Below, one piece after another: positions 6,185 through 28,806 of a stretch of 64,000 nt of DNA. The translations under genes and the position numbers were made by a program. The DNA comes from Patescibacteria group bacterium (GTDB lineage: Bacteria > Patescibacteriota > Minisyncoccia > UBA6257 > JAAZHW01), in assembly GCA_026415775.1 (NCBI GenBank), contig JAOAGL010000001.1, forward strand, positions 334,233 through 398,232, given 5' to 3'. The notes under the pieces were generated by a model, which was not told where the DNA came from, did not search any database, and was given only the letters and a program-made list of their open reading frames with translations. The stretch's first letter is position 1, and each line of letters opens with the position of its first letter.

Positions 6185-6883
6185 ATGAAAAACCCTAAAA
6201 TTTTAATTTTTTATGGTCCGCCCGGTGCTGGAAAAGATACTCAAGCAAAAAGAGTGGCTTTTAAATCTGGTGCGCATATTGTTAGCTCCTCAAAACTAAT
6301 AGAAGAGAAAATTTTTGATCCCAACCTACAGAACGATCCTATTATTCAGCGTGAAAGAAAAAATTATGAAAGTGGAGCATTATGTACCCCTGAATGGGTT
6401 ACTGAAATAATTAATAATAAAGTTAAGGAACTATATCAAAAAAATATTTCTTTGATTTTCACTGGCTCTCCACGTACTTTATATGAGGCTGAAAACGAAA
6501 TTCCGTTTTGGGAATCAATTTATAATAAAGAAAATATTTTTGTTATTGTAATTAATTTAACCGATGAATCCTCTATTTTCCGCAATAGCCATCGTCGTAT
6601 TTGTGAGAAATGTGGTTATCCGGTAATTTATTCTTTCGAGACAGAGATGTGGCAGTTTTGTCCAATGTGCGGAGGAAAAATTGTTGATCGTGGCATTCTT
6701 GATAATCCAGAAACAATTAAAGTGAGATTGGTGGAATATCGCGAACGAACCAAACCGGTAATTGATTATTTCATTAATCGCGGTTATTCAATTATTGAAA
6801 TTGATGGAGAACCATTGCCTGATGTTGTTACTCAAAATATTTTTGAACAATTAAATAAAGTTAATTTTTTCAATAATGATTAA
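6185..6883 (+). CDS. adk: Adenylate kinase with zinc-binding LID (CxxC...CxxC)
   Basis: P-loop GPPGAGKDTQA; LID cysteines CEKCG...CPMCGG; 232 aa with an internal insertion; position after secY. Confidence 0.85.
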   Translation: MKNPKILIFYGPPGAGKDTQAKRVAFKSGAHIVSSSKLIEEKIFDPNLQNDPIIQRERKNYESGALCTPEWVTEIINNKVKELYQKNISLIFTGSPRTLYEAENEIPFWESIYNKENIFVIVINLTDESSIFRNSHRRICEKCGYPVIYSFETEMWQFCPMCGGKIVDRGILDNPETIKVRLVEYRERTKPVIDYFINRGYSIIEIDGEPLPDVVTQNIFEQLNKVNFFNND

Positions 6884-7634
6884 ATTAAAATCTAAAGAAG
6901 AAATTAAGATTTTAAGAGAGGGAGGACGTATTTTAGCACAAATTCTTTTTGAGGTGGCAAAAAAAGCGAAGCCGGGCGTAGCCACGAGGGAATTAGATTG
7001 GTTGGCGGAAAACTCCATTTTAAAATTTGGCGGCGAACCGGCTTTTAAAAATTATCAACCAGCTTTTAATCTTCGTCCCTTCCCCGCTTCTTTATGTGTT
7101 TCGGTAAACAATACCATTGTTCATGGCATCCCCGGTGATTATGTGTTGGTTAACGGCGATGTTGTCAAATTAGATTTGGGAATGAAATATGAGGGTTTGT
7201 ATACTGATATGGCTATTACTATTGGAGTAGGCAATATTTCTTCTCTGGCAAAAAAACTTATAAGAGTAACTAAAAAAGCTTTGAGTTTGGCAATAAAGAC
7301 AGCTCAATCCGGAGCGACGTTGGGAGATATTGGCTTTGCCATTCAGAATTATATTCGTTCCCAGGGTTTTTATGAGATTCAAACGCTAACAGGCCATGGC
7401 GTTGGTTATGCGCCACATGAGGAACCAGATGTGTTTAATTATGGTATACCAGGCAAAGGGATTAAATTAAAAGAAGGTATGGTAATTGCAATTGAGCCAA
7501 TGGTAGCGGTTGATTCCTCGGATGTTATTGAATTGCCTGACGGGAGTTTTGTGACAAAAACGGGTTGTTTGTCGGCTCATTTTGAGCATACTATTGCCAT
7601 TACCGAACGCGGTCCGTTGATTTTAACTAAATAA
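6876..7634 (+). CDS. map: Methionine aminopeptidase type I
   Basis: 252 aa; MIKLKSKEEIKILREGGRILA... and metal-ligand context (D...D...H...E...E pita-bread fold motifs); position after adk. Confidence 0.9.
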   Translation: MIKLKSKEEIKILREGGRILAQILFEVAKKAKPGVATRELDWLAENSILKFGGEPAFKNYQPAFNLRPFPASLCVSVNNTIVHGIPGDYVLVNGDVVKLDLGMKYEGLYTDMAITIGVGNISSLAKKLIRVTKKALSLAIKTAQSGATLGDIGFAIQNYIRSQGFYEIQTLTGHGVGYAPHEEPDVFNYGIPGKGIKLKEGMVIAIEPMVAVDSSDVIELPDGSFVTKTGCLSAHFEHTIAITERGPLILTK

Positions 7635-7637
7635 ATT

Positions 7638-8072
7638 ATGGCAAATATTTTGGGAATTGATTACGGAACTAAGAGAATAGGTTTGGCAATTGCAGACGAA
7701 AGTTTAAAATTACCCCTACTTTTAAAACCGATTGAATATTCCGAGAATGAAGTCGAGGGTGTTTTTAAAAAAATTAAAAAAATTTGTGATGAAAATAAAA
7801 TTTCTCTTATTATTTTAGGGTTGCCCCTATCATTTAATTTTAAAGAAACACCAATTTGTGAAAAAATAAAAAAATTTGGAGAATTGTTAGAAAAATATAC
7901 CCAAAGAAAAGTGTTATATCAAAATGAAATTTTAACAACTGATGAGGCAATTAAAATTCAGGAAAGTTTTGACATAAAAAGAAAAAGAAAATATCGCAGT
8001 GGATCTAATTTAGACAGTCAATCAGCCGCTTTAATTTTAGAAAGTTATTTTATTTCCAGGGGGAAGCAATAA
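7638..8072 (+). CDS. ruvX: YqgF/RuvX-like putative pre-16S rRNA nuclease (RNase H-like Holliday-junction-resolvase-like)
   Basis: N-terminal ILGIDYGTKRIGLAIAD and C-terminal DSQSAALILESYF are hallmarks of YqgF. Confidence 0.7.
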   Translation: MANILGIDYGTKRIGLAIADESLKLPLLLKPIEYSENEVEGVFKKIKKICDENKISLIILGLPLSFNFKETPICEKIKKFGELLEKYTQRKVLYQNEILTTDEAIKIQESFDIKRKRKYRSGSNLDSQSAALILESYFISRGKQ

Positions 8073-13175: not shown

Positions 13176-16322
<3,147 letters not shown>

Positions 16323-16359
16323 AAAAATGCTTCATTAAAAATTCATTCTCAGCAAAGAC

Positions 16360-16477
16360 TTCTCGGTGATTTAGCCCATTGTGTACCACCTCTTCCCATT
16401 CCGAACAGAGAAGTGAAAGCAATGGGCGCCGATGGTACTCACCCGAACACGGTGGGAAGAGTAGGCTTCGCCGAGAA
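16360..16477 (+). rRNA. rrf: 5S ribosomal RNA
   Basis: CTTCTCGGTG...CCACCTCTTCCCATTCCGAACAGAGAAGTGAAAG...GCGCCGATGGTACT...CGCCGAGAA has conserved 5S loop motifs and terminal helix I. Confidence 0.85.
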
Positions 16478-20972: not shown

Positions 20973-22208
20973 TTGTTTATGTCTTTTATTAAGTTATCTG
21001 GTAAAATTTCTCCCTCTTTTACTCTTATTGAATTATTAATTGTTATCGCTATTCTCGCTGTTTTAATGTCTGTTATTGTTATAACGATTAATCCTACCGA
21101 GATGCTAAAACGCACTCGTGATGTTAGACGTCTTTCTGATTTAAAAACTCTTAATTCAGCTTTATCTGTTTACTCAGCCTCTAATCCCGATGGTTTTTTC
21201 GGGAATCTCAACACTGTCTATATCTCTATTCCAGATTCTTCACCAACTTGTGCTAATTTAGGTTTACCAGCTTTACCAACTGGTTGGTCTTATGCTTGTT
21301 CAAATTCTACTAATTATCGTAAGACAGATGGTGCTGGCTGGATACCCATTAACCTTAAAAACCTGGATATTGGTTCACCAATTTCAGCCCTTCCAATCGA
21401 TCCTATTAACTCAACAACTTCTGGTCAATATTATACTTATGTGGTGGGAGGAAGTTGGGAGTTAAATGCTATTTTGGAATCAGATAAATATCGTAATGAT
21501 AAAACACTTACTAAACAAAATTTTCCTGGTGTTCTTTCTTTTGGTTCCAATATCAACCTTTCACCTATATTTAACAATTCAGGTTTAGTAGGATATTGGT
21601 CTTTTGATGAAGGAAGTGACACTATTGCTTATGATTATTCGGGCAATAATAATCATGGAACTTTATATAATGGTCCTCAATGGGTTAATGGTAAAATCGG
21701 CAAAGCCTTAAGTTTTGATGGGATGGATGATTATGTGGATTGTGGCACTAGTACAGTTTTTGATATGAACACAAATGATTTTACTATTGCAGTTTGGGCA
21801 AGGGCTATTAGTGGTATTTCACGTAGAGGTATTATTAATAAAGGAGGGTGGTCTGGGTCTGTAAAGGGGTATGCTATCCAACAGGCCTATACCCCCGCTA
21901 ATAAATATTATTTTGTGGTTATGGATGATACAGGCTATAAAGGCGTTCCTACTTCTCTTTTGGAGACTTGGGATTGGAGTTTTATAGTTGGTAAGAAAAC
22001 AACTAATCATATTGAAGTTTGGACAAACGGCATGAATTCTAGTGCTTATGATACTACTATTAATTCTTTAAGTAATCCTATTAAACCATTCGAAATTGGA
22101 AAAAGTGCAACAACTGAGTTTTTCAATGGTTTAATTGACGAAGTTCGAATTTACAATCGCGCTCTTTCTGAAGCTGAAATTAAGGCTTTATATAATGCTA
22201 CAAAGTAA
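20973..22208 (+). CDS. Type IV pilin-like protein with C-terminal LamG / concanavalin A-like lectin domain
   Basis: N-terminal prepilin-like segment SFTLIELLIVIAILAVL; C-terminal ...LIDEVRIYNRALSEAEIKALYN is a typical ending of LamG_3-type domains. Confidence 0.6.
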   Translation: MFMSFIKLSGKISPSFTLIELLIVIAILAVLMSVIVITINPTEMLKRTRDVRRLSDLKTLNSALSVYSASNPDGFFGNLNTVYISIPDSSPTCANLGLPALPTGWSYACSNSTNYRKTDGAGWIPINLKNLDIGSPISALPIDPINSTTSGQYYTYVVGGSWELNAILESDKYRNDKTLTKQNFPGVLSFGSNINLSPIFNNSGLVGYWSFDEGSDTIAYDYSGNNNHGTLYNGPQWVNGKIGKALSFDGMDDYVDCGTSTVFDMNTNDFTIAVWARAISGISRRGIINKGGWSGSVKGYAIQQAYTPANKYYFVVMDDTGYKGVPTSLLETWDWSFIVGKKTTNHIEVWTNGMNSSAYDTTINSLSNPIKPFEIGKSATTEFFNGLIDEVRIYNRALSEAEIKALYNATK

Positions 22209-23631: not shown

Positions 23632-23838
23632 ATGGCAATTATTAAGATTAGAAGAATTATTGGAACTTCACCCAAAAGTTTTGATGACGCATTAAAAAAT
23701 ATTATTGAATTTGTTGGGAAGGATAAATATAATTTGACTGGTGTTAAAATCATCGATCAATCAGTTTCATTAGATAAAGGCAAAATTGTAGAATACAAGA
23801 TTGTGGCGGATGTCGCTTATAAATGGGAAGAAAAATAA
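23632..23838 (+). CDS. Dodecin-like small flavin-binding protein
   Basis: 68 aa; ...KIRRIIGTSPKSFDDALKN... resembles the dodecin EIVGTSP-containing fold. Confidence 0.45.
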   Translation: MAIIKIRRIIGTSPKSFDDALKNIIEFVGKDKYNLTGVKIIDQSVSLDKGKIVEYKIVADVAYKWEEK

Positions 23839-23840
23839 AA

Positions 23841-25124
23841 ATGAAAAAGAATAATCAGCCTACTATCCTTAAAAAAGAAGGATTAAATTTTTTGCTTATA
23901 CCGCTTAAAGAAGCAACTAGCGTGACTTTTTTGATTTTGGTAAAAACTGGTTCTGAATATGAAAAACCAAATGAAGCGGGAATTTCGCATTTTTTGGAGC
24001 ACATGTGTTTTAAGGGCACCAAAAACAGACCTAGTCCAAAAATTATTTCCACCGAACTTGATTCAATTGGTGCGGTTTATAATGCTTTTACTTCTCGGGA
24101 ATATACTGGTTATTATGCTAAGGCAGCTGCGGAACATACTGATAAAATTTTAGATATTGTTACTGATATTTATCTTAATTCTTTGTTTGATTCTAATGAA
24201 ATAGAAAAGGAAAAAGGGGTAATTTTAGAAGAAAAGAATTATTATGAGGACACGCCAAGTGTCAAAATTGAAGAGTTGATTTTTGAATTATTATATCCCA
24301 AACAAGCAGCAGGACGGCCGATTATTGGAGATGAAAAGGTAATTAAAAATTTGAAAAGAGAAAATTTTTTAGATTACCACAAAAAACATTATACCAATGA
24401 AAAAACTCTTATTGTCTTAGCTGGTAATTTTGAGAAGGAGAAGATTATTAAAAAAATTGTAAATTTAATGAAAGATATTCTTCGGGGAAAAGGTGGTGAA
24501 AAATTTAAGACAATTATTAAAAAACAAGTGGAACCACAAGTTTTAATCCATAATAAAAAAACCGACCAAACACATTTAATTTTGGCTGCAAGAACTTTTA
24601 ATTGTTTTGATGAGAGACGGTATGCATTATCAGTTTTATCAACTATTTTAGGAAGCGGTATGAGCTCCCGACTTTTTCAAGTTATTAGAGAGGAATTAGG
24701 AGCAGCTTATTATGTTTATTCATTTAATGATTTAAGTTTGGACCATGGTTTTTTGGGTATTGCGGCTGGTTTGGCTTTGGATAAAACTGAAAAATCTTTG
24801 ATGGCAATTAAAAAAGAATTGGACAAATTAAGCAATGAATTAGTTGGTGACGAAGAATTAAAAAAAGCCAAAAGCTTTATTAAAGGAAAGTTGGCCCTTT
24901 CTTTAGAAACGACCAATGATTATGCATTTTATTATGGTTCCCAACACCTTTTTTACGGACAAACATTCTCTTTGAGGGAGATATTTAATAAAATTGATGC
25001 TGTGGATAAATTAACAATTAATAAGTTAGCAAGGGTTATTTTCCAGCCAAAATCATTGAATTTAGCCTTAATAGGACCATATGACCAAAAAGACAAAATG
25101 CGCTTTAAAAAAATGCTAATTTGA
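23841..25124 (+). CDS. M16 family zinc peptidase (insulinase-like)
   Basis: Inverted zincin motif HFLEHMCFKGT (HxxEH). The ATG at 23841 avoids overlap with the previous gene; the ORF track gives an alternative start at 23823. Confidence 0.8.
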   Translation: MKKNNQPTILKKEGLNFLLIPLKEATSVTFLILVKTGSEYEKPNEAGISHFLEHMCFKGTKNRPSPKIISTELDSIGAVYNAFTSREYTGYYAKAAAEHTDKILDIVTDIYLNSLFDSNEIEKEKGVILEEKNYYEDTPSVKIEELIFELLYPKQAAGRPIIGDEKVIKNLKRENFLDYHKKHYTNEKTLIVLAGNFEKEKIIKKIVNLMKDILRGKGGEKFKTIIKKQVEPQVLIHNKKTDQTHLILAARTFNCFDERRYALSVLSTILGSGMSSRLFQVIREELGAAYYVYSFNDLSLDHGFLGIAAGLALDKTEKSLMAIKKELDKLSNELVGDEELKKAKSFIKGKLALSLETTNDYAFYYGSQHLFYGQTFSLREIFNKIDAVDKLTINKLARVIFQPKSLNLALIGPYDQKDKMRFKKMLI

Positions 25125-25803: not shown

Positions 25804-25846
25804 AAAAAAATCTTGCATTTGCAAGAATTTTTTTCTTTTTTATAAT
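25804..25846 (+). promoter_or_regulatory. Palindromic hairpin (A-run/stem/T-run bidirectional terminator) with embedded TTGCAA-N16-TATAAT promoter for the downstream GC-rich ORF
   Basis: AAAAAAATCTTGCA-tt-TGCAAGAATTTTTTT; TTGCAA at 25819-25824, TATAAT at 25841-25846; GGAGGTG Shine-Dalgarno-like sequence upstream of the ATG at 25911. Confidence 0.5.
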
Positions 25847-25910
25847 GGAGATGGGAGAAAATCCCATTCAATAGATCTTTTAAAAATAAAAAAAGAAGGA
25901 GGTGAAAATA

Positions 25911-28751
25911 ATGAAAGCAAAACCTGGTTTTAATGAAAAGGATTTTAGGAAAAAATTTAAATTGTGGGAGAATGGCGAGGTCGGATTGAAACATTTTACT
26001 TCCGATGAAAGAGCAGAATTGTTGGAAACTGGTTACATCACTCAAGAACAATTTATTGAGTTGATGCCGGAAAAACTTCAAGAATACTGGCGGGCAATTA
26101 GTGAATTGCTTAGCAAAAAAAGGGTTTTTCGGAATACTGACGCAGCCACTGCCTTGCCGCTTGGTTTAAAAGGCAGGTACCAACGCTTGAATATGTCTCG
26201 CGGTATTTTAATGAAGTTCAAAGAGTGGGGGATGCTGGAGACAATTCGTATTGGTGCTCATAATGTTTACTTTTCAACTGCTCCTGGCTTCTATACTCAA
26301 GATGAAATTTTAAAGCTGATTCCAAAAGAATATCAGAAAAACGTTTTGCAATTATTTGCTGATGATTGGACATCGATTCAAGAGGTAGCTAATTTGTTGA
26401 ATTTATCCTCGCGATTTCTGGAAGAAATTTTGGATGCTTTTGTAAAAAGGGGGTTGTTGGTTAAAGGGAAAGGCGGCTATCGTCGTTCGCAAGCGTTGAA
26501 AGAGGCGGGTGTTAGTGTTGAATCCCTTGAGGCTTTAGATTTAGTTCAGGCGCATAATTTACTGATGCAGGAAAAAGAACGCAAAGCAGCTACCCAAAAG
26601 ATTACCAGTTTGAAAGAAATAAAAGAAGTGGTTGAAAGAGATATTCGCCATAAGAGTGTTAAAATGCTTCAAGAAGAAATCAATGAAGAATCGGCGCGTT
26701 TAAGCTTTATTGGTGAAGTGCGCTTCGGCAATCAATTTGTAGATGTAGAACTGGTAGAATGGGCAATAAATATACTGAAAGAATATTTTAAACCTCATGT
26801 TATTATTGCTTCTGACTTTGTTCAGGGCGATTTCCGCGGAATTCAAGTTGAAAGACTGCGCTCTTTGACAAGGACGGGTCTTCAGCGGATAGAGCAGCAA
26901 TATTCTGCAGCCAATTTGTTGTTAAAAGAACTAGAAAAAATTGCCAAAAACAAGGTTGTCTATCTTTTGTCTGATGATGATTGGCAGGTTTCTTTGTCCC
27001 GAGTGATTATTGCCCTAGAACAATTCCGAGGCATTAGAGGATTGGGTATTGGTAGTCGTTGGCCAGAAGAAATAAAACGTCTTTCTGGTGCAGACTACTA
27101 TCGTTTAATGAAAATCCAGTGGGAAACAGTTCAGCCTTATATGTATCGAATCGGTCGCTCCCTTCTTAATGCCGATGAAGTAAAAAAGGTTATTGGTGAT
27201 CATATTACTGAACTCTTGGTGATTATTTTTATTTTGCTGTTCGAAGAGTTTAATAAGCCGATCCCTGAAAAGTATAAAAAGTTGGTTGATGTTGAAGCTC
27301 TTCATAGCGATAAACCGGGTTCTAAAAGAATCATTAGTCCTGATCCCATCAATCTCTATCTGAAAAATATCCAAAAAAGAATTCTTGCTCAGCATAATAT
27401 TGCCTTCTCAGACATTACGCAGTACGTGGATAGCGGATTGATTCCAGAATGGATTTTGCGCAATCTTCAAGCTCGCGGTCGAGAAACGCCTTACATTTGG
27501 GTTGATTTCCACCAAGAAAGATTTTGGGGTACTAAGTTGTACAATACTTTCATTTTTAATTTACCCGGCTGTCAGAATCCTTTACCAGCTGCTGAAGGAA
27601 AAATCAAAACTTTTCACACAAAAATTCTTTCAGATAAAGCCCATCGACAAATCTATTTCCGAAAAGAACCACCAACGCCTGGTGTTGTAAACTTTGAAAT
27701 TTTCAAAGATGGTCGGCTGCGCATCCATGTTCTTAACAACAAAATCAAAGATGTTATTGAGAAAGAAAAGGATGAACCAGAGAAAAAAGATTTACTTGCC
27801 TACACTTCAGATTGGCAGTTTGGTTCTTTAACTATGAGACCCGAATGGGTGATAAAATTCCTGGACTATGCTCTTTTTAGTAGACGAGCGACTAATTTGG
27901 CGCTCAATGGTGACCTCATTCAGGGTTTTCATTATCCGAGGTTCGTTTCTGAAAACAGACCAAAAAGACTAGTGTCCGTAAGCAGCCAGAAGGCATTTAC
28001 TACCACGTTGCTCAAACCATTTTTCCCAGCGCCTAATCTTGAAACTATTGATGTTTTGTTGGGGAATCATGAATGGGAAATTTGGGGAGCAGACATTACT
28101 GGACAGAATAATCTCGAATTCATCTTCTTTGTTCTTAAAGAAATATACGAAAACCAAAAGTTATTTAAAGCTGATCTCAAAGTACCTGATATTAAAATTT
28201 GGAATAGAGTTAGAATTGTTAAAACTGCTGGGAGACATGGTTCAACAATCAACCATCCATATGGTAGCAGAGTGCTCAAGTCAAACTACAAGATTGCTAT
28301 TCAACATCAGTGGTATCCGCGTGGCGGCGGAAGAACACCAATGCATTCTCAAATAACTTGGTTAAGAAACATTGCTCAAGCTGCTTCTGATTTACATGTT
28401 CTTTTTGGTGGGCACAAACATACTTTTTGGATTGCGATGATTGCTGAAATTTTGATGTTGCAACTTCCTGGTCTGAATGACCAATCAGCTTTTGAATTTG
28501 CCCGTGGCCTGATGCCTCAGTCAATGGGTTGTCTGGTAGAATTTTCCAACAAAAGCGGCGTTACCATTGAATTAATCCCTGTTGAATTTCTAGAAGAATA
28601 TAAATGCATCTCTCCGTTCTACAAAGAAATAGATGAGAAAGGACTTCTTGATCGTCCAAAACCAGGAAGTGTTGAATACAGATATGGCCTAGATTCTCCA
28701 TTCATTCACCAATTAGAAGAACAAATTGACGCCGAATATCCAGAAGTGTAA
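25911..28751 (+). CDS. Large (946 aa) multidomain hypothetical protein, compositionally foreign; winged-helix-like region plus C-terminal calcineurin-like metallophosphoesterase-like motifs
   Basis: Uninterrupted ORF with a strong Shine-Dalgarno-like sequence. GC is about 45 percent against about 30 percent in flanking DNA, and codon usage is distinct (CTG, CGC, GCC). Motifs SDWQFG...NGDLIQG...GNHE...GGHKH are phosphoesterase-like. Confidence 0.7.
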   Translation: MKAKPGFNEKDFRKKFKLWENGEVGLKHFTSDERAELLETGYITQEQFIELMPEKLQEYWRAISELLSKKRVFRNTDAATALPLGLKGRYQRLNMSRGILMKFKEWGMLETIRIGAHNVYFSTAPGFYTQDEILKLIPKEYQKNVLQLFADDWTSIQEVANLLNLSSRFLEEILDAFVKRGLLVKGKGGYRRSQALKEAGVSVESLEALDLVQAHNLLMQEKERKAATQKITSLKEIKEVVERDIRHKSVKMLQEEINEESARLSFIGEVRFGNQFVDVELVEWAINILKEYFKPHVIIASDFVQGDFRGIQVERLRSLTRTGLQRIEQQYSAANLLLKELEKIAKNKVVYLLSDDDWQVSLSRVIIALEQFRGIRGLGIGSRWPEEIKRLSGADYYRLMKIQWETVQPYMYRIGRSLLNADEVKKVIGDHITELLVIIFILLFEEFNKPIPEKYKKLVDVEALHSDKPGSKRIISPDPINLYLKNIQKRILAQHNIAFSDITQYVDSGLIPEWILRNLQARGRETPYIWVDFHQERFWGTKLYNTFIFNLPGCQNPLPAAEGKIKTFHTKILSDKAHRQIYFRKEPPTPGVVNFEIFKDGRLRIHVLNNKIKDVIEKEKDEPEKKDLLAYTSDWQFGSLTMRPEWVIKFLDYALFSRRATNLALNGDLIQGFHYPRFVSENRPKRLVSVSSQKAFTTTLLKPFFPAPNLETIDVLLGNHEWEIWGADITGQNNLEFIFFVLKEIYENQKLFKADLKVPDIKIWNRVRIVKTAGRHGSTINHPYGSRVLKSNYKIAIQHQWYPRGGGRTPMHSQITWLRNIAQAASDLHVLFGGHKHTFWIAMIAEILMLQLPGLNDQSAFEFARGLMPQSMGCLVEFSNKSGVTIELIPVEFLEEYKCISPFYKEIDEKGLLDRPKPGSVEYRYGLDSPFIHQLEEQIDAEYPEV

Positions 28752-28776
28752 ACAGAATTTCAAATTTAACAACAAT

Positions 28777-28806
28777 ATAGAGGGTCCTTGTGACCCTCTA
28801 TTTTTA
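28777..28806 (+). terminator. Rho-independent terminator
   Basis: ATAGAGGGTC-cttgt-GACCCTCTAT followed by TTTTT. Confidence 0.65.

Follow-up and report, generated by a model that had tools for sequence, protein, structure and literature searches.

Within a 64,000-nucleotide (nt) stretch of contig JAOAGL010000001.1 from a Patescibacteria group bacterium (the window, meaning the whole stretch of DNA that was analyzed), we found that the large open reading frame (ORF) between pcm and lepB, referred to below as the big gene, is monocistronic, lies on the chromosome, and has been passed on vertically in one Paceibacterota/Minisyncoccia lineage. Its product of 946 amino acids (aa) carries two winged-helix (WH) domains, a degenerate metallophosphoesterase (MPE) domain, termed psiMPE, and an intact-looking MPE domain. 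As judged from its sequence, the protein brings a new domain arrangement to the metallophosphoesterase superfamily and belongs to an undescribed, sparsely distributed bacterial family. On balance, we lean towards the explanation that this inherited WH-WH-psiMPE-MPE protein works alone as a metal-dependent nuclease or phosphodiesterase with nucleic acids as its substrates. The gene and the domains of its product, with helices and confidence (predicted local distance difference test, pLDDT) taken from AlphaFold2 (AF2) models, are as follows:

25911..28751, forward strand: the big gene, 946 codons plus stop, encoding the WH-WH-psiMPE-MPE protein.
26070..26276, forward strand: winged-helix domain 1, aa 54-122 (helices 54-70, 75-81, and 89-105, hairpin 109-122, pLDDT 85-92).
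26325..26486, forward strand: winged-helix domain 2, aa 139-192, which holds the SIQEVANLL...KRGLL stretch.
26517..26654, forward strand: long helical linker, aa 203-248 (AF2 helices 203-228 and 234-248).
26658..27740, forward strand: degenerate metallophosphoesterase domain psiMPE, aa about 250-610.
27783..28580, forward strand: intact-looking metallophosphoesterase domain, aa about 625-890.
28581..28748, forward strand: helical tail at the C-terminus, aa 891-946, which members of the close subfamily conserve.

A preliminary description of this DNA had reported the 946-aa ORF at 25911-28751, and the four phosphoesterase-like motifs it listed are in place (SDWQFG at aa 633-638, NGDLIQG at 666-672, GNHE at 718-721, and GGHKH at 833-837). 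The sites of the intact domain are D634-x-Q636 (27810-27818), G667-D668 (27909-27914), Y675, G718-N719-H720-E721 (28062-28073), H799 (28305-28307), and H835-x-H837 (28413-28421). In an alignment of 130 full-length homologues, on which all conservation counts are based, D634, G667-D668, G718-N719-H720, and H799 were conserved in 130/130, E721 in 123/130, H835 in 121/130, and H837 in 125/130, so variation at the seven ligand or catalytic positions is absent or slight. The ordered dimetal-ligand motifs (DxH / GD / GNH[DE] / H / GH / GHxH) were present with a single deviation, a Q at the motif-I His; because position 636 is Q in 122/130 and H in 8/130, it alternates only with the canonical ligand.

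Residues 250-610, which the preliminary description had passed over, form a second phosphoesterase domain, degenerate in that the MPE fold is retained there while conserved metal ligands are missing. Its motif-equivalent positions are E269-x-R271, S301-D302, S354-D355-D356-D357, H495, and H534, and across the family they vary (E/D-x-L/R/N, S-G/D, G/S-D-D/E-D), with Gly at the bridging Asp position in 85/130. This domain also carries a 110-residue helical insertion (aa 355-465) with the invariant motif QPYMYRIGR (PY..R.GR). When the profiles of the middle and C-terminal domains were compared by hhalign, they matched with a probability of 85% (E 6.8e-6, 97 columns) and with motifs I-III in register, pairing E269 with D634, G273 with G638, D302 with D668, Q330 with Q693, and SDDDW with GNHEW. 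This match of both halves indicates that the tandem arose by internal duplication, after which the first copy degenerated.

The full-length AF2 model (pLDDT 73, predicted TM-score (pTM) 0.70) consisted of one WH unit at aa 54-122 and another at 139-192, followed by long helices (aa 203-248) and two alpha/beta sandwiches, and a separate model of aa 245-625 reached pLDDT 78 and pTM 0.81. The four-layer alpha/beta sandwich of the MPE fold was found for aa 625-890, so structure prediction, the check that the preliminary description had proposed, returned the phosphoesterase fold in the form of two MPE domains in tandem. At the N-terminus, the three-helix bundle and beta-hairpin wing of winged helix-turn-helix (wHTH) domains were recognized, and the winged-helix-like stretch noticed earlier was located at aa 155-183. 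The SelB C-terminal WH (SECIS-binding) matched the single sequence over aa 48-208 with E 6.8e-5, a match that faded to E 0.18-0.37 with the family profile, and in Foldseek the SelB WH structures 1lva/2ply matched the N-terminal module. The winged helices are predicted to bind nucleic acid.

The descent of the gene could be read from its context, which we checked for homologues at three levels of identity (84%, 68%, and 47%) and for seven GTDB species representatives, reached with the alignment A1 and labelled Patescibacteria group, Minisyncoccia, Candidatus Paceibacterota, and one Saccharibacteria; there were 13 orthologous loci in total. The slot between pcm and lepB was occupied by the big gene in 13/13 loci, down to 47% identity, and wherever contigs reached, the order was recO, a 636-aa DUF11 protein, glyS, dodecin, M16 peptidase, pcm, the big gene, lepB, hisS, HIT, S21, ftsA, ftsZ, topA, and dprA. 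Moreover, the big gene co-diverges with its neighbours: identity of its protein to three orthologues was 85%, 68%, and 49%, as compared with 74-93%, 49-86%, and 44-68% for the neighbours, and nonsynonymous divergence (dN) against locus L001 was 0.097, as compared with 0.04-0.16. Synonymous sites were saturated against L001, where synonymous divergence (dS) was not computable for the big gene; its silent-site identity of 0.34, lower than the 0.41-0.59 of the neighbours, is due to its less biased third positions and therefore supports no inference of rate. Homologues conserved in related Candidate Phyla Radiation (CPR) genomes, which the preliminary description had itself named as grounds for abandoning its island reading, were thus found for this clade.

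The gene has candidate transcription and translation signals of its own. The promoter-like site and the flanking terminators were located by consensus scan, and these and the ribosome-binding site are present as reported earlier:

25811..25836, forward strand: intrinsic-terminator-like hairpin TCTTGCATTTGCAAGA plus T-run closing the upstream pcm (6-bp stem, 3 GC pairs), placed by the scan at 25811-25826.
25819..25846, forward strand: sigma-70-like promoter candidate TTGCAA-N16-TATAAT for the big gene (10/12 consensus matches, consensus match alone).
25850..25880, forward strand: 5' leader, with a small hairpin GGGAG...TCCC (25853-25865) and then the box ATAGATCTTT (25871-25880).
25898..25904, forward strand: ribosome-binding site GGAGGTG, 6 nt before the ATG at 25911.
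28777..28806, forward strand: intrinsic terminator that ends the big gene, a G+C-rich hairpin ATAGAGGGTC-loop-GACCCTCTAT (10 pairs, 5 GC) with a T-run, placed by the scan at 28777-28801.

Another promoter-like site precedes lepB in the same consensus scan. The hairpin after pcm has counterparts in L001, L002, and L005, TTGACA/TATAAT-like boxes stand at the matching position in L001, L002, L009, and L010, and hairpins equivalent to the big-gene terminator follow the orthologues in L001, L002, and L005, so the arrangement terminator-promoter-gene-terminator is kept in orthologous loci. As the gene has a promoter-like site and terminators of its own, the conservation of the neighbourhood reflects synteny and not an operon. 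Within the leader, the box ATAGATCTTT(AA), lying between the promoter-like site and the ribosome-binding site, recurs in loci at 84% and 68% protein identity; the hairpin position and a ATAGATCTTTAA box were found again in L001 (about 7935-7975), L002, L009, and L010, with stem sequences that differ between the orthologous loci, e.g. GGCGGAAG...CTTCCGTT. This recurrence with different stems suggests that 25850-25880 may be a conserved regulatory leader.

The preliminary description had taken the big gene for an autonomous, horizontally acquired unit of foreign composition. It is a compositional outlier, although a mild one. The ORF exceeds its neighbours in G+C content (GC), as had been stated, but at 38.7% as compared with 32.5% and 32.2% for the flanking genes, and not at 45-48% as compared with 30%; its 60-mers range from 28 to 55% with a mean of 39%. 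Among the 56 ORFs of the window it ranked second in GC (z=2.0) and first in GC at third codon positions (GC3; 33.6%, as compared with a mean of 22.4%, z=2.8, and with 21-28% in the flanking genes), and a methionine aminopeptidase-like M24 gene (6876-7634) equals it in GC richness. As for the codons said to be abundant, CTG (14.8 vs 1.6 per 1000) and CGC (11.6 vs 5.1 per 1000) are indeed enriched, but GCC is not (11.6 vs 11.3 per 1000). The orthologues likewise exceed their own loci in GC (36.3% vs 33.7%, 38.4% vs 36.1%, and 44.2% vs 41.4%), and since the offset exists in every genome examined, it is a property of the gene and not a sign of recent arrival. The GC and GC3 excess over neighbours was seen in the window, L001, L002, and L005, and amino-acid composition, codon selection, or an ancient origin are possible causes.

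Therefore, the reading of the gene as a recently acquired single-gene island with a defence, toxin, or nucleic-acid-targeting effector, for which its high GC and GC3 (highest or near-highest in the window), its private promoter-like site and terminators, the combination of WH and nuclease-like modules common in defence systems, and a weak match to the PADLOC model WH_III-A (E 0.009) can be cited, seems to us barely tenable. Position and gene order are kept in 13 loci, the gene diverges together with its neighbours, and every orthologue has the same GC offset. Integrases and meaningful flanking direct repeats were not found, in agreement with the earlier observation, and short AT-rich chance matches alone flank the gene. 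In addition, tblastn of 50,697 phage and 72,556 plasmid records gave no homologue, two pattern scans of IMG/VR gave no relative, and no defence model of PADLOC-DB 2.0 was matched, the WH_III-A match being the only one and insignificant. The distant homologues, finally, have housekeeping or metabolic genes around them, without any neighbour that recurs. Shared slot, co-divergence, shared GC offset, and the lack of phage, plasmid, or IMG/VR matches together leave the reading of the big gene as a horizontally acquired defence island without support.

Searches of Pfam, NCBIfam, PADLOC, and PHROGs gave nothing above threshold for the window protein, the best sub-threshold matches being Rrf2/HTH models at aa 150-230 and phrog_284 'exonuclease' at aa 817-893 (E 2e-4); Metallophos of Pfam did not match it even at E <= 1. 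Nine diverse distant members likewise had no significant Pfam match and no Metallophos match at E <= 0.05, and the earlier statement that the protein belongs to no named family is borne out. The identical protein on record is a 'hypothetical protein, Patescibacteria group bacterium' (P0001) from a metagenome-assembled genome. A word-indexed search returned this exact protein and 17 further homologues at 47-84% identity, all uncharacterized; a search with the 60-sequence alignment A2 added nothing to these 18 close homologues, and the distant member P0058 retrieved only itself. The diverse alignments A2 and A3 contain no conserved stretch of 7-10 columns. An exhaustive hidden Markov model search of 1.84 billion cluster representatives yielded 172 proteins at E <= 1e-3 (90 at E <= 1e-30), which stand for clusters at 50% identity and mostly measure 750-1250 aa, and the few with a source name are labelled 'hypothetical protein'. 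The family is highly divergent: at about 25% identity, its 130 full-length members separate into at least 16 groups, and among the distant members there are many of about 770 aa in which the N-terminal region with the winged-helix module is missing. One Patescibacteria lineage has conserved the family; in other uncultivated bacteria its occurrence is scattered. In the literature, we found no paper with both 'Patescibacteria' and 'metallophosphoesterase', and none on tandem or inactive MPE domains.

One branch of distant relatives (L029 3616-11334 and L024 3754-11297) encodes a 765-775-aa homologue without the WH module in the order dnaN-murF-pgi-X, followed by hisF-like, cbiX, aspS, and hom (homoserine dehydrogenase) genes. 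A genome of this branch has a lipopolysaccharide heptosyltransferase and so is not CPR-like, which extends the family beyond Patescibacteria. In a BLASTP clustering of ORFs from 16 distant loci, families of neighbours reached 3 loci at most, and since the recurring neighbours are PGI, HisF-type, and CbiX, plain synteny accounts for them.

What the protein does was approached through its nearest known relatives. With the 60-sequence profile A2 against all PDB sequences, the only significant family was PolD DP1 (T. kodakarensis, E 1.4e-6; P. abyssi, 0.029), and Mre11/SbcD reached only E about 0.25. The DP1 alignment spans SDxQ/HxGS, the following helix, GDxxxGxxYP, a conserved Gln, and GNHE, and thus goes beyond generic motifs. 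Within it, Y675 (121/130) aligns with Y415 of DP1, the base-stacking residue that binds the base of the 3'-terminal nucleotide in the crystal structure (PMC4996933). The middle-domain profile A5 found nothing significant in PDB. In Foldseek searches of PDB with the MPE fold, PolD DP1 and the Pol alpha B-subunit came first and Vps29 and Mre11 lower; the figures of the fold comparison were 15.9 and 15.0 for the Pol delta B-subunit, 15.0 for MJ0936, 14.8 for DP1, 14.5 for Vps29, 14.4 for the Pol alpha B-subunit, and 13.3 for Mre11. No Toprim or OB protein was among the top 60 structure matches.

As both halves resemble DP1, B-subunits, and Mre11 and the tyrosine is kept, metal-dependent phosphodiester cleavage at ends is the most likely activity. 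Under the explanation that we favour by a modest degree, the C-terminal MPE domain would bind two metals and hydrolyze phosphodiester bonds at DNA (or RNA) ends, the degenerate half would pack against it as a built-in second protomer, scaffold, or substrate platform (compare the Mre11 dimer and the B-subunit scaffolds), and the winged helices would target the enzyme to DNA or structured RNA, the whole serving as an exo- or endonuclease for repair, recombination, or nucleic-acid processing. Because the halves stem from an internal duplication, the single polypeptide probably imitates the dimer formed by Mre11/SbcD-type nucleases. We infer metal binding, nuclease activity, the pseudo-dimer, and the physiological role from these resemblances. 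Several points weigh against the nuclease explanation: motif I is the non-canonical DxQ; pLDDT falls below 50 in the loops of motifs II and III (aa 669-688 and 719-733); and the DP1 match was seen with the broad profile A2 only, being absent from PDB searches with the narrow profiles A1 and A6. Further, the superfamily contains many non-nuclease enzymes, and likeness of fold does not fix the substrate. An SbcC/Rad50-like ATPase, a polymerase, or a ligase was not found as a conserved partner beside the gene in close or distant loci, so context gives no functional support.

Other activities have to be weighed against this one. The enzyme might instead act on non-polymeric substrates, as a cyclic or linear (di)nucleotide phosphodiesterase, a pyrophosphatase or diadenosine tetraphosphate (Ap4A) hydrolase, or a Ser/Thr phosphatase, fused to winged helices as a DNA-bound regulator or sensor. 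We consider this unlikely, though worth keeping in mind, because the best matches are nuclease-type MPEs (DP1 at E 1.4e-6) while cyclic nucleotide phosphodiesterases and protein phosphatases gave nothing significant, because the base-stacking Tyr of DP1 is conserved, and because homologues of about 770 aa without the WH module indicate that DNA-binding regulation is not the core function. The SelB-like character of the winged helices raises the thought of an RNA-directed enzyme, in which they would bind an RNA hairpin and the MPE domain would trim, debranch, or heal ends by chemistry like that of Dbr1 or of 2',3'-cyclic phosphodiesterases. This appears rather improbable: RNA is a much rarer target of winged helices than DNA, the SelB match loses strength once the family profile is used, DP1/Mre11 were not outranked by any match of the Dbr1 or Pnkp type, and the conserved neighbourhood is overall synteny, not an operon.

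The DP1 match also invites the proposal of a bacterial counterpart of the DP1/B-subunits, an accessory or proofreading subunit docking on a replicative or repair polymerase with the dead half as scaffold. We give it very little credence, since the typical OB insertion was not detected, no polymerase gene adjoins the big gene in any locus, the proximity of dnaN is confined to one sub-branch, and the similarity is remote (10-16% identity). A DP1-like OB-fold between both halves was looked for and rejected, the top matches for aa 245-625 all being MPE domains; no polymerase gene was within 8-10 kb in any locus (whole genomes not searched). In a wider form, the protein could represent an unrecognized bacterial branch of DP1/B-subunit-type phosphoesterases, with an active DP1-like and an inactivated B-subunit-like half that go back to an internal duplication. 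It would then process ends in the manner of Mre11 but without need of Rad50/SbcC, or else assist a polymerase in proofreading or as a scaffold; we put this idea forward as a long shot.

Some further observations concern the neighbourhood. A type IV pilin-like gene with an N-terminal methylation motif and a Laminin_G_3/ConA-like (LamG) domain lies at 20973-22208, between the 636-aa DUF11 gene and glyS; it is missing from 13/13 syntenic loci and is the real strain-specific insertion of the neighbourhood. In L011 (7138-7885) and L013 (6219-7004), two of the 47%-identity orthologous loci, the big gene and lepB are set apart by about 750 additional bp, whereas the distance is only about 95 bp in the window and closer relatives. 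The dodecin-like ORF (23632-23838) and the M16 peptidase ORF (23823-25124) overlap by 16 nt; the pair adjoins in all syntenic loci, and the overlap is also present in L005 and L006. In L002 (115-1629), a large serine recombinase (Resolvase/Recombinase/Zn_ribbon_recom) stands upstream of recO and is absent at that position from L003 and L004, whose big protein (P0006) is identical; it looks like a mobile-element insertion beside the conserved block. Elsewhere in the window, at 13181-16477, a 23S rRNA of 3141 nt exceeds its model of 2925 positions, pointing to an insertion, and a 5S comes after it. Because protein-coding ORFs and not 16S lie directly upstream, the rRNA operon appears split.

These results remove a false positive, in that a mild GC excess and private transcription signals do not make an island against synteny and co-divergence. 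They also bring to light a family of about 170 clusters at 50% identity that is absent from curated libraries, with an unreported architecture of two winged helices and a dead and a live MPE domain. If the nuclease activity holds true, a stand-alone end-processing enzyme like Mre11/DP1 would be added to the sparse DNA-repair repertoire of the ultra-small Patescibacteria cells, and a natural pair of active and inactive MPE domains would be available for studying how B-subunit scaffolds evolved from nucleases. If the branch of DP1/B-subunits were real, either of its proposed roles would matter for the question of how the small subunits of replicative polymerases arose in archaea and eukaryotes.

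Compared with known systems, the big protein differs from SelB tandem winged helices and from the wHTH regulators of the ArsR/MarR/Rrf2 kind in having no GTPase or regulator effector domain and in that its WH module is missing from family members of roughly 770 aa; Pfam and NCBIfam regulator models also stay far below threshold. Vps29 and other dead MPE scaffolds differ in that the dead domain here is fused to a live paralogue and has the 110-residue insertion with the invariant PY..R.GR motif. With regard to Mre11/SbcD, the sequence similarity is insignificant, no capping domain was recognized, no Rad50/SbcC ATPase gene adjoins the big gene in any locus, and one of the two halves is degenerate. 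DP1/B-subunits (Pfam DNA_pol_E_B clade, in which DP1 is the archaeal 3'-5' proofreading exonuclease and the B-subunits belong to eukaryotic polymerases) carry an OB-fold insertion within the N-terminal portion of their phosphoesterase domain (PMC4996933), an insertion not detected in the big protein, which unlike them is bacterial, has two MPE domains in one chain, N-terminal tandem winged helices, and DxQ, not DxH, in motif I, has no DP2 or polymerase partner near its gene, and gives no DNA_pol_E_B match even at E <= 1. With the OB insertion absent and no polymerase or Rad50/SbcC-like gene nearby, we did not file the protein as a member of DP1/B-subunits or of Mre11/SbcD. DP1 nevertheless gave the sole significant sequence-profile match in PDB, seen with the broad profile A2 only and covering motifs I-III, the stretch with the base-stacking Tyr, and the conserved Gln after it, and the DP1/B-subunit clade, with its active (DP1) and inactivated (B-subunit) versions, offers a parallel to the two halves of the big protein.

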